Assembly (NCBI RefSeq): GCF_013122565.1
Contig: NZ_CP053258.1
DNA: 64,000 nucleotides
Origin: Escherichia coli
GTDB taxonomy: Bacteria > Pseudomonadota > Gammaproteobacteria > Enterobacterales > Enterobacteriaceae
Direction: 5' to 3' (one strand)
In this document: piece by piece, positions 35,006 through 57,466 of the stretch
Numbering within the stretch: the stretch's first letter is position 1
Layout: each line of letters begins with the position of its first letter
Notes under the pieces: model-generated
What the model saw: the letters and a program-made list of their open reading frames with translations, nothing else
Database searches by the model: none
Told to the model about the DNA's origin: nothing
Translations under genes and position numbers: made by a program

Positions 35006-36394
<1,389 letters not shown>

Positions 36395-36573
36395 TTAAAA
36401 GGTAACATGACAATGCATGATGAATATAACAACATATGATGTTATGTAATGTGGAGGAAGATCACATAATTTCGCACAGGATCGCGCTGTGGCTGATGAA
36501 TGTGGTTATCCAATTGAAATTAAAGTGAAAATATTTTTACGGGTGGGGAGCAAGAAGGATATAGAAACAAATA

Positions 36574-36598
36574 CGCCCTCGGAAAATCCAGAGGGCGT
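36574..36598 (-). terminator. Candidate terminator downstream of yhfL
   Basis: Hairpin gccctc-ggaaaatcca-gagggc; on the minus strand followed by a T-rich stretch (atttgtttc). Confidence 0.35.
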
Positions 36599-36638
36599 CA
36601 GGCAATTAAACCGGTGTTAGCCGATTTCTGTCAGAGAC

Positions 36639-36806
36639 TTACTGTGCAGTAGGACCGCAACCGCCAATGATTTTAGAAATAGAAATTGCCGGGTGCAGCA
36701 GGTAGTCGTAAGAGCAGTTCTTATCACGGTTTTCAATATGACCAGTACATGCAGTTAACGTAGCCAGTACCGCACCTACCAGTGCAACTTTAATAAATTT
36801 GTTCAT
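36639..36806 (-). CDS. yhfL: Small lipoprotein YhfL (55 aa), not in the ORF track (<60 aa)
   Basis: Manual translation gives MNKFIKVALVGAVLATLTACTGHIENRDKNCSYDYLLHPAISISKIIGGCGPTAQ: signal peptide with lipobox LTAC; ATG at 36806, stop at 36639. Confidence 0.7.
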   Translation of the reverse strand: MNKFIKVALVGAVLATLTACTGHIENRDKNCSYDYLLHPAISISKIIGGCGPTAQ

Positions 36807-37023
36807 TTACATTCCCTATGTATTATATATTGATTAATATTCATTGATTGTATGAATATAAGTAGACTGCTCATTAAGAACGATACAGGAATATTTAATC
36901 GGCGTCAGTGAGTGAATGACTTAATTTTGTAAGTCGCTGTAACGGTGAATATAACCCATTAGCAGATAATATTTATTAAGGGGTTATGTTTTTATCTGCT
37001 GAATATATAAAGAGAGTTGTAAA

Positions 37024-37050
37024 CGAAAAAGGCCAGAATTCTCTGGCCCT
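37024..37050 (-). terminator. Intrinsic terminator of the nir–cysG transcript
   Basis: Hairpin ggccagagaattctggcc followed on the minus strand by ttttt, 8 bp downstream of the cysG stop. Confidence 0.55.
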
Positions 37051-37057
37051 GATTAAA

Positions 37058-38431
37058 TTAATGGTTGGAGAACCAGTTCAGTTTATCGCGCAGGCCAACA
37101 ACCCGACCAATAATAATTAATGATGGACTGTTCATTTGCTGCGCCAGTTCGCCCAGTTGTGTGAGCGTACCGTCAATCACGCGCTGCGTGACTGCTGTTC
37201 CGTTTTCGACAATTGCCACCGGCATTTCGCCAGGCATACCGTGTTCAATCAGCTTTTGCTGAATGGTCGCGGCCTGATTCAGCCCCATATAGAACACCAG
37301 CGTCTGTTTTTCTGCCGCCAGGTTTTCCCAGTCCAGCTCGCCACCGGTTTTTAAGTGTCCGGTAATTAAGCGTACGCTCTGGGCATAATCGCGATGCGTG
37401 AGCGGAATACCCGAATAGGCAGAGCAACCAGAAGCTGCGGTAATACCCGGAACCACCGAGAACGGAATACCCGCGTTGCACAGTGTTTCCAGCTCTTCGC
37501 CACCACGGCCAAAAATAAACGGATCGCCACCTTTCAGCCGCACCACGCGTTTGCCTTTTTGCGCTTCCCGCAGCAGGATCTGGTTAATCTCTTCCTGCGG
37601 TACGCAGTGGTATCCCGCGCGTTTGCCGACGAAAACGCGATCAGCATCGCGGCGTACCAGATTCATAATATCGTCAGAAACCAGACGGTCGTAGACCACC
37701 ACATCTGCCTGCTGAATTTGTTGCAGACCCTTCAGTGTCAGCAGCCCGGCATCGCCCGGACCTGCACCAACCAGCACCACTTCACCGCGATGGTCGAGCG
37801 GTTCGTTGATTAACTGTTCGGTCGTTTCAGTAATGGCTTTCTGATCGTTGTTTGCCAGCGACTGCGCCAGGCGGTCGTTAACAAACAATTTCTCCCAGAA
37901 ACGGCGACGCTCACCCATCGTGGCGAACTGTTGTTTCACTCGACCGCGTAATTGCCCGGCGTATTTCGCTACCTGGCCCAGATGTAACGGTAGCAGTGAT
38001 TCAAGTTTTTCGCGTAACAGGCGCGCCAGAACCGGAGAGGTCCCGCCAGAGGAGACCGCGACCATTAGCGGTGAGCGGTCAATAATCGACGGCATAATAA
38101 AGCTGGCGGCTTTCGGCGCATCGACCACGTTACAGAAGATGCGACGAGCTTCAGCGGCTTCGCTGACGCGCTGGTTAAGCGCGTCATCATCCGTCGCTGC
38201 AATCGCCAGCCAGCAGGTGTCGAGAAGGCTTTCATCAAATGGCCCTTCGACGAGGGTTAACATGCCTGCATCTGCCCATGCGGTGAACTGTGGAATAAAC
38301 GCTAATGCATTCACCGTTAAGCGAGCACCTGCGTCTAACAGCAACCTTGCTTTGCGTTCCGCGACATCACCACCGCCGACAATCAGACAGTCGCGATCGC
38401 GTAATTGGCAAAATATAGGCAAATGATCCAC
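37058..38431 (-). CDS. cysG: Siroheme synthase (multifunctional)
   Basis: ORF-track 457 aa; NAD-binding N-domain and C-terminal SAM-methyltransferase domain ([10 protein letters not shown]). Confidence 0.95.
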
Positions 38432-38449: not shown

Positions 38450-39256
38450 TTAACCGGCAGCCGTTTCAGTTTGATTAAATTTGTCCGCAACCGGACGATT
38501 CGCTTTCGGCGTAGCATACCAATAACCCAATCCCATGAATACGGCACCTGATAAAGTATTACCCAGCGTCACCCACAGCAGGTTATGACCAATACCCGCC
38601 AGCGTGTAGGCTTCGCTGTGGTTGCCGAACCAGGAGAGCGCGAACAGCGTCATGTTAGCGATGGAGTGCTCGTAGCCGGACGCGATAAATGCCAGCAGAC
38701 ACCACCAGATTGCGATAAATTTCGCCGCCCCTTCAGTGCGCAGCGCCATCCAGATTGCCAGACAAACCAGCCAGTTACACAATGCACCTTTGAAGAACAG
38801 TACCATTGCCGGCGCAGTGGTTTTAGCCAGCGCGACGGAGTGAACGATGCTGGTATCTACCGGCAGCAGGCTACCGCCACCCCAGCTATAGAGCATGGCA
38901 ACGAAGACGGAACCGACCAGGTTACCCAGCCAGGTTTGCGGCAGGATTGCCCACATTTGCCCGTGGCTGATGGTGCCCGCTTTCACCCCAAAGGTGAGGA
39001 ACATGGTGTGTCCGGTGAACAGTTCAGAACCGGCGATAATCACCAGCGTTAAAGCGATACCAAAGGTCGCGCCCATCACCAAAGGGCGTACGGATGGATC
39101 GAGCAAATTACCGAGCGTAAAAATCAGGATGATCCCAAGACCCACATACGCGCCCGCCATAGCGGAGCTGACCCAAAAGCCGAGCGGGTTATTTGCCGAC
39201 AGGCGTGCAATGCGCGCAGCGTTAGCCGCACACTTATTAATAGTGTCTGTAAACAT
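38450..39256 (-). CDS. nirC: Nitrite transporter NirC (FNT family)
   Basis: ORF-track 268 aa, formate/nitrite-transporter-like hydrophobic profile. Confidence 0.9.
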   Translation of the reverse strand: MFTDTINKCAANAARIARLSANNPLGFWVSSAMAGAYVGLGIILIFTLGNLLDPSVRPLVMGATFGIALTLVIIAGSELFTGHTMFLTFGVKAGTISHGQMWAILPQTWLGNLVGSVFVAMLYSWGGGSLLPVDTSIVHSVALAKTTAPAMVLFFKGALCNWLVCLAIWMALRTEGAAKFIAIWWCLLAFIASGYEHSIANMTLFALSWFGNHSEAYTLAGIGHNLLWVTLGNTLSGAVFMGLGYWYATPKANRPVADKFNQTETAAG

Positions 39257-47365: not shown

Positions 47366-49468
47366 TTACGCCTTCGAATCCCGCAACTTGCGACTCAGCC
47401 AAATCCCGTGATGCGGTCGCTGACGCCATGCCATCGACGAAATGGTGTGCATGGTGTTCAGATGACCAATAACCCGCTGTAAATGCTGCTCCAGCGTACC
47501 TGCCGCGCCTTCGTGCGGCTGCATCTCCGGCGCATCCATGATATTGGCATCGCCAGAACTCCCCGGTTCGTCATACTCCAGTCGCTGCTGACAACGCTGA
47601 ATGGCGATTTCACAAGACTGCAAATATTCTTGCGCCAGTTCAGGCGGCAATGCCCGGTGTTCCCGTGCCAGCGTGGTCATGGCATTAATATGTTCAACAA
47701 TAAACTGACTGTGCGTTACCCACAGTTTCATATCTGCCAGATAATGGCTGTTGAATGCCGGTTCCTGCATCGCTTGATTCAATGAGTTATACAGAGTGTT
47801 ATGCGCCTGATTTACCCGCATTCGCTGCCAGGCCAGTGGGGTAGGTTGCGGGTCCTCGCTCAGAATCAAGCGAATCGCTTCCTGATAGGCTTCTAAAGCA
47901 TCATGGGCGTTTTTACGCAATAACCCGCTCTGCCACTGCGGCCACAGCCAGACGGTACCACCGAAAGCAATCAAACAACCAATAATGGTATCGATAAGAC
48001 GTGGAAGGATGTACTGCTCACCGTTCAGCCACAACAGTTGCAGGGTATACACTGCGGTAATAGTAAAACCGACCGTCGCCCAGCCGTAGTTTTTGCGCAA
48101 TATCAGGTAGCTGGCGAGGGTGGTAATCAGCATCAAGGTCAGGGTGTAACCTTCGGGAATTTTAAAGTGCAGCGCCACGCCCGCAATGATTAACCCAACC
48201 ACGGTTCCCACGGAGCGATTCACAATCCTCAGACGGGTTGCGCCATAGCCATTTTGCGTCACCAGCAATACCGTCATCAGGATCCAGTACGACTTCGGCA
48301 GATGCAGCGCGGTACCCATCAGGCTGGCAACGCTTAACATCACACTGAGTCGTCCGGCATTGCGTAGCGCCGGAGACTTTAGTGACAGATAACTTTTCAG
48401 CGCCGGAAGTAACGGCATTCGCCGCTGTTTATCGGCCAGTAAGTCACGGGCATAGAGCGGTTTTTGGGTGCGCAGCACGCGGGCAATGCGGCTGAAATGC
48501 CAGTAGCAGAATTGCCCAACCGGATTATCCGGATGCTGGCGGGCGATTTTTTCCAGTGCGCCAATTTGCTTTTCCATCGTAAAACGCGTCGGCAGGCGAT
48601 GGTAAAGAATGTCATCAGCCAGCACGCGCAGGCGAGCGGCGACGGTTTGCGCATTCCAGCGGATAACTTCTTCCGCATGGCTACGCTCGACCAGTTTTTG
48701 CACCTCTTCCGGCTGATGCAAACTGACCGAAATATGTTCCTGCAAATCCAGCGCCTCCTGGAAAATACGCAGCATCCGCTTGTAGTCAGTATTATTTTGC
48801 GCGGAAAGCATATGCATTTGCTGATAGCACTGGGTAATTAGATCGACCGCTTTTTGCTGGCGCACCAGCAGCGGCGGCAGCGCTTTTTCAGGGTCGGTGT
48901 GCTGGGTAAGCAGGCTGTATTTGGCTTCACAATAATCTGCCAGTTCACGGTATAGCAGACTTAGTGACTCGCGCAGCGGTTGTTCGCGCCAGATCCAGAA
49001 CCAAAACCAGTTAAACAATCCGTACCAGAGAGTGCCCAACGCATAGATGAGCAACGGTTCCCAGACCGGCATGTATCCCGCCAGACTGAGGGTAAAAATG
49101 GCGGCGAGCAGCGATGCGGGAAGCAATTTAGCGTGCAATGGCCCCAGCTCAGCAGTGACGCCAAGTACCAGCGTTAATCCGGTCAGCAAAAAGGGCAGGG
49201 GAACATCTTTTGCCAGTAGTAGCTGTGTCAGCAAGCTACAGGTGGCAAACAGCGACGCACCAATGATTAAGCGTTTGAAAAAACGTTTATGAGGCGTATC
49301 AAGGCCCGCAATATTGCAACAGGCAGGAACGAGGGAGAAGAGCAGACCGAATCGTAATTCGCCAAGCATTAACCCAACGGCCACGGGCAAACATAGCACC
49401 AGCGTTTGTCGCAGTGCATAGTTGATATCGGGGTGATAAATCAGTCTGCGCCACATCGGGGGAAACAA
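47366..49468 (-). CDS. yhfK: Inner-membrane protein YhfK (FUSC/AaeB-like)
   Basis: ORF-track 700 aa, two hydrophobic blocks separated by a soluble domain. Confidence 0.85.
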   Translation of the reverse strand: MFPPMWRRLIYHPDINYALRQTLVLCLPVAVGLMLGELRFGLLFSLVPACCNIAGLDTPHKRFFKRLIIGASLFATCSLLTQLLLAKDVPLPFLLTGLTLVLGVTAELGPLHAKLLPASLLAAIFTLSLAGYMPVWEPLLIYALGTLWYGLFNWFWFWIWREQPLRESLSLLYRELADYCEAKYSLLTQHTDPEKALPPLLVRQQKAVDLITQCYQQMHMLSAQNNTDYKRMLRIFQEALDLQEHISVSLHQPEEVQKLVERSHAEEVIRWNAQTVAARLRVLADDILYHRLPTRFTMEKQIGALEKIARQHPDNPVGQFCYWHFSRIARVLRTQKPLYARDLLADKQRRMPLLPALKSYLSLKSPALRNAGRLSVMLSVASLMGTALHLPKSYWILMTVLLVTQNGYGATRLRIVNRSVGTVVGLIIAGVALHFKIPEGYTLTLMLITTLASYLILRKNYGWATVGFTITAVYTLQLLWLNGEQYILPRLIDTIIGCLIAFGGTVWLWPQWQSGLLRKNAHDALEAYQEAIRLILSEDPQPTPLAWQRMRVNQAHNTLYNSLNQAMQEPAFNSHYLADMKLWVTHSQFIVEHINAMTTLAREHRALPPELAQEYLQSCEIAIQRCQQRLEYDEPGSSGDANIMDAPEMQPHEGAAGTLEQHLQRVIGHLNTMHTISSMAWRQRPHHGIWLSRKLRDSKA

Positions 49469-55652: not shown

Positions 55653-57457
55653 TGGAAGGTTCCGATTTTTTACTCGCAGGAGTGTTGTTTCTCTTCGCGG
55701 CGGTGGCTGCGGTGCCGCTGGCATCGCGGCTGGGTATTGGCGCTGTGTTGGGATATTTGCTGGCAGGGATTGCAATTGGCCCGTGGGGGCTGGGGTTTAT
55801 TAGCGACGTCGATGAGATCCTCCACTTTTCGGAACTCGGCGTGGTGTTCCTGATGTTTATCATCGGCCTTGAGTTGAATCCCTCCAAGCTTTGGCAACTG
55901 CGGCGTTCGATTTTTGGCGTAGGCGCGGCACAGGTGCTGTTAAGCGCGGCGTTGCTGGCGGGATTATTGATGCTGACGGATTTCGCCTGGCAGGCGGCGG
56001 TGGTCGGTGGCATTGGCCTTGCGATGTCTTCGACCGCAATGGCGTTGCAACTGATGCGTGAGAAAGGGATGAATCGTAGCGAATCCGGGCAGCTCGGGTT
56101 TTCGGTTCTGCTGTTTCAGGATCTGGCAGTGATCCCGGCACTGGCGTTAGTGCCGTTGTTGGCGGGGTCGGCAGACGAACATTTTGACTGGATGAAGATC
56201 GGCATGAAGGTGCTGGCGTTTGTTGGCATGCTGATTGGCGGGCGCTATTTACTGCGTCCGGTATTCCGTTTTATTGCAGCTTCTGGCGTGAGGGAAGTGT
56301 TCACCGCCGCGACGTTACTGCTGGTGTTGGGTTCCGCATTGTTTATGGATGCGCTTGGGCTGTCGATGGCGCTCGGTACGTTTATTGCGGGCGTGCTGCT
56401 GGCGGAAAGTGAATATCGCCATGAACTGGAAACGGCTATCGATCCCTTCAAAGGCTTGCTGCTCGGTTTGTTCTTTATCTCTGTCGGCATGTCACTCAAT
56501 CTCGGGGTGCTTTATACCCATCTGTTGTGGGTAGTGATAAGCGTGGTTGTGCTGGTGACGGTGAAAATTCTCGTGCTATATCTGCTGGCGCGATTATATG
56601 GCGTGCGTAGCTCAGAGCGGATGCAGTTTGCTGGCGTGTTGAGTCAGGGCGGCGAGTTTGCCTTTGTCCTCTTTTCTACTGCTTCTTCGCAACGGTTGTT
56701 TCAGGGCGACCAGATGGCGCTGTTGTTGGTGACGGTAACGCTTTCTATGATGACCACGCCACTGCTGATGAAGCTGGTGGATAAATGGCTATCCCGCCAG
56801 TTTAACGGACCAGAAGAAGAAGACGAAAAACCGTGGGTCAACGATGATAAACCGCAGGTCATTGTCGTGGGCTTCGGGCGTTTTGGGCAGGTGATTGGTC
56901 GTTTGCTGATGGCAAATAAAATGCGCATTACTGTGCTGGAGCGGGATATCAGCGCCGTTAACCTGATGCGTAAATATGGCTACAAAGTTTATTACGGTGA
57001 TGCCACGCAAGTCGATCTGTTGCGCTCTGCAGGTGCCGAGGCCGCAGAATCTATCGTGATCACCTGTAACGAACCGGAAGACACCATGAAGCTGGTGGAA
57101 ATATGCCAGCAGCACTTTCCGCATTTGCATATTCTTGCGCGAGCGCGCGGACGTGTGGAAGCGCATGAGTTATTACAGGCAGGGGTGACGCAGTTTTCCC
57201 GTGAAACATTCTCCAGTGCGTTAGAGCTGGGGCGCAAGACGCTGGTCACGCTTGGCATGCATCCGCATCAGGCACAGCGGGCGCAACTGCATTTTCGCCG
57301 CCTGGATATGCGGATGCTGCGAGAGCTCATCCCAATGCATACCGATACCGTACAAATTTCTCGCGCCAGGGAAGCCCGACGCGAACTGGAAGAGATTTTC
57401 CAGCGTGAAATGCAACAAGAACGACGCCAGCTTGACGGCTGGGATGAATTTGAGTAG
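55652..57457 (+). CDS. kefB: Glutathione-regulated K+ efflux system protein KefB
   Basis: ORF-track 601 aa; N-terminal CPA2 transporter domain plus C-terminal KTN/RCK domain ([11 protein letters not shown]). Confidence 0.92.
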
Positions 57458-57466
57458 AGGGTAAAG

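Follow-up and report, generated by a model that had tools for sequence, protein, structure and literature searches.

The interval between cysG and frlA (positions 36395-37057, 663 bp) raises the question of what a short minus-strand frame in otherwise unassigned DNA amounts to: whether it is a gene, what its product could do, and whether the AT-rich sequence around it holds anything else. The window analyzed here is a 64-kb stretch (64,000 nucleotides) of an Escherichia coli genome, and the interval contains no other ORF of at least 60 aa. The first-pass annotation had proposed a 55-codon minus-strand ORF at 36639-36806, had called it the lipoprotein gene yhfL, and had described it as missed by the ORF track. 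The sequence and its translation (MNKFIKVALVGAVLATLTACTGHIENRDKNCSYDYLLHPAISISKIIGGCGPTAQ) confirm the frame, and the name is borne out by the RefSeq annotation of the orthologous ORF. Its absence from the track is explained by length, since the default ORF listing has a floor of 60 aa and the product has 55; once the minimum length is lowered, the ORF is shown. The track did therefore pass over it, whereas the gene itself had already been annotated.

The yhfL gene, its family, and its distribution

The coding sequence, its internal features, and the upstream neighbors are located as follows.

36639..36806, minus strand: yhfL coding sequence, ATG start, 55 codons and a TAA stop, 43% GC
36806-36750, minus strand: signal peptide, codons 1-19 of yhfL
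36758-36747, minus strand: lipobox L-T-A-C of yhfL
36716-36714, minus strand: conserved Cys31 of yhfL
36686-36675, minus strand: in-frame hexanucleotide repeat ATTTCTATTTCT within yhfL, coding for I-S-I-S
36659-36657, minus strand: conserved Cys50 of yhfL
36812..36817, minus strand: Shine-Dalgarno-like AGGGAA, separated by 5 nt (36811-36807) from the yhfL ATG
37058-38431, minus strand: cysG
38450-39256, minus strand: nirC

The encoded protein is identical to the 55-aa product of K-12 MG1655 b3369 (yhfL, NP_417828.1), named 'DUF4223 domain-containing lipoprotein YhfL' in RefSeq, and the two coding sequences differ by one synonymous nucleotide change. The PGAP label of the gene is 'YhfL family protein'; all full-CDS matches, among the matches listed, are labeled 'yhfL: YhfL family protein', and the gene is annotated as yhfL in all inspected E. 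coli records that keep it. The window and K-12 have in common the position of yhfL between cysG and frlA, the Shine-Dalgarno sequence, and the terminator; the AGGGAA element is the same in aligned K-12, TB06051, and GN04979. The neighboring genes, nirC and cysG upstream and frlA and frlB downstream, lie on the same strand as yhfL, and its location downstream of nirBDC-cysG is shared with K-12, TB06051, GN04979, and Leclercia. The protein matches the Pfam family PF13978 (DUF4223) at profile positions 1-54 of 54 with a score of 129.2 bits (E = 5e-38), the gathering cut-off being 27. It also contains the family motif C-T-G-x(6-8)-C-x-Y-D-Y-L-L-H-P-x-I-S-I-S-K-x-I-G-G-C-G with three cysteines, and every column that is invariant in an alignment of 28 sequences from different genera. 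The ORF is yhfL, a real coding gene. The finding is correct and known, and it carries little weight as a discovery: public annotation and papers already cover yhfL, the family to which it belongs, and the regulatory DNA on either side.

A database search yielded 269 YhfL-homologous clusters across Enterobacterales, including those from Salmonella, Citrobacter, Leclercia, Cronobacter, Serratia, Erwinia, Hafnia, Edwardsiella, and Xenorhabdus. When 1.84 billion cluster representatives (50% identity) were searched exhaustively with a profile, the yield was just 74 family members, and no link from YhfL to any characterized family emerged. Distant members occur in Aliivibrio, Carnimonas, Cellvibrionales, and one alphaproteobacterial MAG. 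The dN/dS ratio of yhfL, calculated by the Nei-Gojobori method, is 0.17 in comparison with Salmonella, 0.13 with C. koseri, 0.11 with Serratia, and 0.08 with Xenorhabdus, synonymous sites being near saturation in these inter-genus comparisons, and the gene is under purifying selection. Among the 28 aligned sequences, the mature protein is better conserved than the h-region of the signal peptide, which is free to vary as expected for an exported protein.

The conservation of the gene, rather than its lipobox, is what distinguishes it from background. The lipoprotein rule (a basic residue among the first seven, six uncharged residues, a lipobox [LVI][ASTVI][GAS]C, and the Cys at positions 15-35) fits five of the 634 window ORFs that reach 30 aa, and shuffled windows contain about four such ORFs each (range 2-8). 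Taken alone, the rule does not exceed chance, and the significance of the yhfL ORF lies in homology (PF13978) and selection (dN/dS). The other ORFs fitting the rule, 4735-4920 and 1902-2225 and 57252-57464 on the plus strand and 48397-48678 on the minus strand, appear from their sequences to be chance frames that lie within other genes or on the strand opposite to them. Two general points follow for the annotation of small genes: ORF tracks with a 60-aa floor overlook real conserved small envelope proteins, and a lipobox pattern, which has about four chance matches per 64 kb, is not by itself evidence for them, whereas conservation is.

Of 5426 complete E. coli genomes, 5411 carry the yhfL coding sequence, and coverage is at least 80% in 5402 of these; the sequence is at least 99% identical in 3289 E. 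coli records. The interval 36395-37057 as a whole shows 95-96% identity with the majority of 5423 E. coli records; the sole record with at least 99% identity is TB06051 from Galapagos fresh water (99.5%). The window strain is not K-12: the spacers flanking yhfL are about 4-5% different in the two, and an indel of 4 nt follows the cysG terminator. The spacer allele looks mosaic, its cysG-proximal part resembling GN04979 and its frlA-proximal part K-12.

At least 80% of the interval is covered in only 3293 of 5421 genomes, and in about 39% of complete E. coli genomes homology stops right behind the yhfL terminator. GN04979, the single non-covering genome that was inspected, lacks the frl operon, and yhfL there adjoins yhfS-yhfT-yhfU-php. 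In strain KFu022, IS1A is found in place of yhfL and yhfT is truncated, consistent with an IS1-associated deletion. In Enterobacteriaceae, yhfL is located between nirBDC-cysG and trpS-gph-rpe-dam, with lineage-specific insertions around it, namely bigA (Salmonella and C. koseri), yhfS-Z, and the frl operon. The neighborhoods of yhfL in Xenorhabdus, Edwardsiella, Serratia, and Erwinia are unrelated to one another, and in each the gene stands alone, with upstream gaps of about 250-1100 bp. The genomic context in these four genera and in Salmonella, C. koseri, and Leclercia provided no functional clue.

Some database entries vary at the ATTTCT repeat. Salmonella entries contain in-frame expansions (ISISIS, ISISISIS), and several E. 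coli entries are frameshifted from about this repeat into an overlapping frame (…LAVAVLLHSKSLTEIG). These entries could be slippage-prone alleles or sequencing errors.

The yhfL transcription unit and the surrounding intergenic DNA

The following features occupy the DNA on both sides of the yhfL coding sequence.

37020..37050, minus strand: cysG intrinsic terminator, stem AGGGCCAGA/TCTGGCCTT followed by a T-run (terminator scan)
36807..37020, no strand: AT-rich cysG-yhfL spacer, 29.4% GC, carrying the predicted yhfL promoter
36847..36877, minus strand: predicted sigma-70 promoter of yhfL (alignment to the K-12 SELEX promoter)
36877-36872, minus strand: -35 hexamer TTAATG of this promoter, with a 19-nt spacer to the -10 hexamer
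36852-36847, minus strand: -10 hexamer TACAAT of this promoter
36627-36608, minus strand: smaller hairpin ahead of the yhfL terminator
36564..36598, minus strand: yhfL intrinsic terminator, ACGCCCTC, a 10-nt loop, GAGGGCGT, then ATTTGTTTC
36402..36466, minus strand: control region of the neighboring frlABCD operon (published promoter and sequence scan)
36466-36450, minus strand: CRP-like site TGTGATCTTCCTCCACA of the frlABCD control region
36450-36423, minus strand: sigma-70-like ATTACA-16-TATATT of the frlABCD control region
36411-36402, minus strand: FrlR operator GTCATGTTAC, an exact match to the published operator
36341-36343, minus strand: annotated start codon of frlA (frlA 35006-36343)

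The AT-richness attributed to 36807-37020 is evident from the composition: no 200-bp stretch of the 64 kb (mean 52.4%) has a lower GC content than 36801-37000, and some other intergenic spacers in the window reach 33.5% GC. The suggestion that this is a promoter or nucleoid-protein-bound region finds support in genomic SELEX data for the same spacer of K-12, in which an RpoD holoenzyme site TTAACG-19-TATAAT and an H-NS site (Shimada et al. 2014, PMC3946193) as well as an RpoS holoenzyme site (PMC5493296) were placed. The word 'island', on the other hand, was overstated, as this is a 250-bp intergenic spacer beside an E. coli core gene that is syntenic across Enterobacteriaceae.

The promoter hexamers are TTAATG/TACAAT in the window versus TTAACG/TATAAT in K-12, the 19-nt spacer is poor, and the window has TACAAT where K-12 has TATAAT. 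Transcription of yhfL would start from this weak sigma-70-type promoter, which is also bound by RpoS holoenzyme in vitro; a start is predicted near 36840, and the leader would thus have about 34 nt. The binding of H-NS to the spacer suggests that expression is probably conditional. Regions upstream of yhfL are unalignable between genera, hence its regulation may differ between them. In Salmonella, C. koseri, and Leclercia, yhfL is preceded at a distance of about 100 nt by a conserved inverted repeat, AGTCCT(T/G)(A/T)T(T/C/A)TGGACTAC, that E. coli lacks; a regulator site and the remnant of a terminator are both conceivable.

Published expression data contradict one observation that the first-pass annotation had named as decisive against the gene, a lack of transcription: yhfL changes 125-fold in RNA-seq, being the most repressed gene upon Nac induction (fold change 0.008), with a ChIP peak (PMC5217608). 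In E. coli O157:H7, yhfL was up-regulated by FeSO4 treatment and was grouped by the authors with iron-transport genes, and it has been named as one of the expression markers of lines resistant to antibiotics. Two yhfL CRISPRi spacers were enriched when Salmonella was screened for IgA escape, but deleting the gene produced no phenotype in the agglutination assay (PMC12070745), and yhfL is among the altered coding sequences in S. Typhimurium DT2 (PMC3760250). The gene is dispensable, as seen from the Salmonella deletion, the DT2 alteration, the E. coli frameshift alleles, and the KFu022 deletion. Adaptive mutations arise in the yhfL/frlA spacer in the mouse gut; most plausibly, they act on frl expression.

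The transcription unit is delimited on both sides. The cysG terminator, which begins 8 nt past the stop codon of cysG (37058-37060), shields yhfL from read-through out of nirBDC-cysG. Downstream, transcription of yhfL would end at a hairpin-plus-U terminator 41 nt past the stop codon. This terminator was overlooked by a pattern scan because its 10-nt loop exceeds the 8-nt loop limit of the scan, whereas RNA folding of the 86-nt stretch 36555-36640, which contains both hairpins, gives -25.5 kcal/mol (z = -2.8). In GN04979, compensatory differences in the loop-proximal terminator stem keep the pairing. With terminators on both sides, yhfL is a stand-alone monocistronic gene.

The lower third of the interval belongs not to yhfL but to the neighboring frlABCD operon, whose promoter and FrlR operator have been published (Graf von Armansperg et al., bioRxiv 10.1101/2020.01.13.904318). 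The window shares with the published promoter the exact FrlR operator, the CRP-like site, and the sigma-70-like promoter. The mechanical frlA ORF starts at an in-frame ATG (36392-36394) located 17 codons upstream of the RefSeq start (462 versus 445 aa). This ATG follows the FrlR operator by 8 nt, falls within the published 5' UTR, and lacks a Shine-Dalgarno sequence; the annotated start is preceded by AAAAAGG.

The further small ORFs or sRNAs that had been suggested for this region gained no support. The 23-codon ORF 36803-36874 on the minus strand (MSSLLIFIQSMNINQYIIHRECK), whose stop overlaps the yhfL ATG (ATGA), is unlikely to be a real gene, given that K-12 has ACG in place of its start ATG and that this codon falls on the -35 hexamer of the promoter. 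The 44-codon antisense ORF 36986-37120 on the plus strand is absent in K-12. Rfam models run over 36200-37300 with permissive filters gave no family at the gathering threshold, and the terminator scan found no plus-strand terminator in the interval. The only match, full-length but below threshold, was to STnc180 at 37020-37212 on the minus strand (21.4 bits versus the gathering threshold of 50, E = 0.04-0.12); it spans the last approximately 155 nt of cysG and the terminator, outside yhfL. The paper naming STnc180 regarded it as a processed mRNA fragment, and the match could be a diverged 3'-end-derived fragment or a chance similarity. The interval 36395-37057 is accounted for by the two terminators, yhfL with its promoter spacer, and the frlABCD promoter, with nothing sizeable left.

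Two other accounts of the locus are weighed against this anatomy. According to one, the ORF would be an untranslated chance frame in intergenic DNA with a fortuitous lipobox-like N-terminus, as its shortness, the AT-rich surroundings, and the four other seemingly spurious ORFs satisfying an in itself non-significant lipobox rule might suggest. A chance frame, however, would hardly match DUF4223 at E = 5e-38, have 269 homologous clusters across Enterobacterales, or retain dN/dS of 0.08-0.17 at near-saturated synonymous change; nor would its product stay identical between divergent E. coli strains with 4-5% difference in the flanking spacers, or be accompanied by a Shine-Dalgarno sequence and a terminator. 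We consider this account already refuted by the conservation pattern, its probability being close to nil. The other account, in which the AT-rich interval is a horizontally acquired islet with more small proteins or an sRNA and yhfL is one piece of cargo, draws on the lowest GC content of any 200-bp stretch in the window, the binding of the spacer by H-NS, the ATGA overlap of the 23-codon ORF (36803-36874) with the yhfL start, and an indel hot spot at this place (presence or absence of the frl operon, yhfS-Z, bigA in Salmonella and C. koseri, IS1). Yet yhfL is found in about 99.7% of complete E. coli genomes, is cysG-proximal also in Leclercia, and occupies the same region in Salmonella and Citrobacter. 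Moreover, the candidate additional cargo disappears on comparison with K-12, where the 23-codon ORF, overlapping the -35 element, has ACG for ATG and the 44-codon antisense ORF is missing; no Rfam family reaches its threshold, no plus-strand terminator is present, and the remaining bases are taken by the two terminators and the published frlABCD promoter. An islet origin is thus very improbable, and we retain the reading of yhfL as a stand-alone gene.

Predicted export, lipidation, and sorting of YhfL

The N-terminus of YhfL conforms to a rule of the PROSITE PS51257 type, with K3 and K6, the uncharged segment VALVGAVLATL, and L-T-A-C ending at Cys20. The lipobox pattern fits 112 of 120 YhfL homologs, and most of the others resemble sequencing or frameshift variants; in the 112 fitting proteins, the lipobox is LTAC (102 cases), LTGC (five), LSAC (four), or LAAC (one). 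The string T-L-T-A-C is invariant or nearly so across the 28 sequences spanning genera, A19 being nearly invariant. The residue at position +2 is Thr in 110 of the 112 homologs, Ser in two, and Asp in none, and the window protein has Thr at +2 and Gly at +3. The lipoprotein signal seen in the first pass is upheld by both the rule and the conservation of the lipobox, and RefSeq likewise names the K-12 protein a lipoprotein.

Bacterial lipoproteins follow an established pathway of Sec, Lgt, LspA, and Lnt, and the '+2 rule' governs their sorting by Lol. From this standard pathway and from the lack of Asp at +2, YhfL is predicted to be a triacylated outer-membrane lipoprotein with a mature part of 36 residues; that is, it is a predicted bacterial lipoprotein, probably of the outer membrane. 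In the proposed route, the 55-residue prolipoprotein would be exported by Sec, Lgt would add diacylglycerol at Cys20, LspA would cut between Ala19 and Cys20, and Lnt would N-acylate the new N-terminus. LolCDE, LolA, and LolB would then carry the protein to the inner leaflet of the outer membrane, because +2 is Thr and not Asp.

YhfL might instead be exported as a non-lipoprotein, either secreted or periplasmic after cleavage by signal peptidase I, or it might stay behind in the inner membrane. The +2 sorting rule has known exceptions, and the lipidation of YhfL is predicted from sequence alone. In addition, an older annotation described it as a 'conserved secreted peptide' (quoted in PMC5493296). 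These points are outweighed by the retention of Cys20 and the preceding T-L-T-A in every genus examined, even in distant relatives whose mature parts are only 36-60% identical, a conservation pattern that fits a substrate of Lgt and LspA and not a signal peptidase I site. The absence of Asp at +2 and the current RefSeq annotation of the K-12 protein as a lipoprotein point in the same direction. Export in a non-lipidated form, or retention in the inner membrane, is accordingly improbable, and the outer-membrane lipoprotein remains the preferred reading.

The mature domain and a possible accessory role

Residues invariant among the 28 aligned YhfL sequences include T16, L17, T18, C20, G22, N26, C31, Y33, D34, and Y35 in the first part of the protein and H38, P39, S42, S44, I47, G48, G49, C50, and G51 in the second. 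The extended family keeps the lipid-bearing Cys, the Gly at +3, the second Cys, and Ser42; the first two cysteines are invariant and the third is present in at least 90% of members, whereas His23 and His38 are unconserved. A metal site formed by Cys and His residues was dropped as the leading idea since the histidines are unconserved and the cysteines conserved. With cysteines kept and histidines lost in distant relatives, a structural Cys31-Cys50 disulfide is favored over a metal site.

The AlphaFold2 models of the full-length protein (28 sequences, pLDDT 63) and of the mature protein (39 diverse sequences, pLDDT 66) both have low confidence; they agree in a beta-hairpin after the lipid anchor, and the C-terminal element is a helix in one model and a strand in the other. 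A Foldseek comparison of the model with PDB gave no match at E <= 0.001, a sequence search of PDB returned nothing significant, and a search of the available literature library for the function of YhfL found nothing. The NCBIfam family LptM (NF047847) was rejected as an assignment, as the match scored 12.6 bits against a cut-off of 27.7 (E = 0.11) and covered only the signal-peptide residues 1-20. The JGI labels 'LptE/RlpB' of some YhfL homologs are probably the same signal-peptide artefact.

The alternation of hydrophobic and polar residues in SYDYLL and AISISKII fits amphipathic strands. We suggest that mature YhfL could form a small beta-rich knob of 36 residues, in which a Cys31-Cys50 disulfide introduced by DsbA would most likely serve as a staple, and that these two strands could dock on an envelope partner, for which YhfL would serve as an accessory or modulatory subunit. 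A small partner-binding accessory protein of the envelope is our best guess for its function, made with low confidence. For the locus as a whole, the explanation that we regard as best, and as highly probable, is a stand-alone yhfL gene with a conditional promoter, encoding a predicted outer-membrane-sorted, disulfide-stapled lipopeptide that would dock on a partner. YhfL is a nearly universal predicted lipoprotein of E. coli from a very small and tightly conserved family, and would be a tractable target among small envelope proteins.

Several very small lipoproteins of Enterobacteria, namely LptM/YifL, BamE, OsmB, and EcnB, have accessory roles. A specific version of the docking proposal, in which YhfL is a conditional outer-membrane mini-lipoprotein whose stapled beta-hairpin docks on and modulates an envelope machine, as LptM does for LptD, is speculative and by our own estimate rather unlikely to be right; if true, it would give a function to one of the last uncharacterized core lipoproteins of E. 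coli. The likeness to these four proteins is by analogy only. As in their case, YhfL is a short prolipoprotein with a lipobox, predicted sorting to the outer membrane, and a tiny mature domain, encoded by a monocistronic gene whose expression is probably condition-dependent. Unlike them, with none of which it has a sequence relationship, YhfL has its own Cys-x18-Cys motif.
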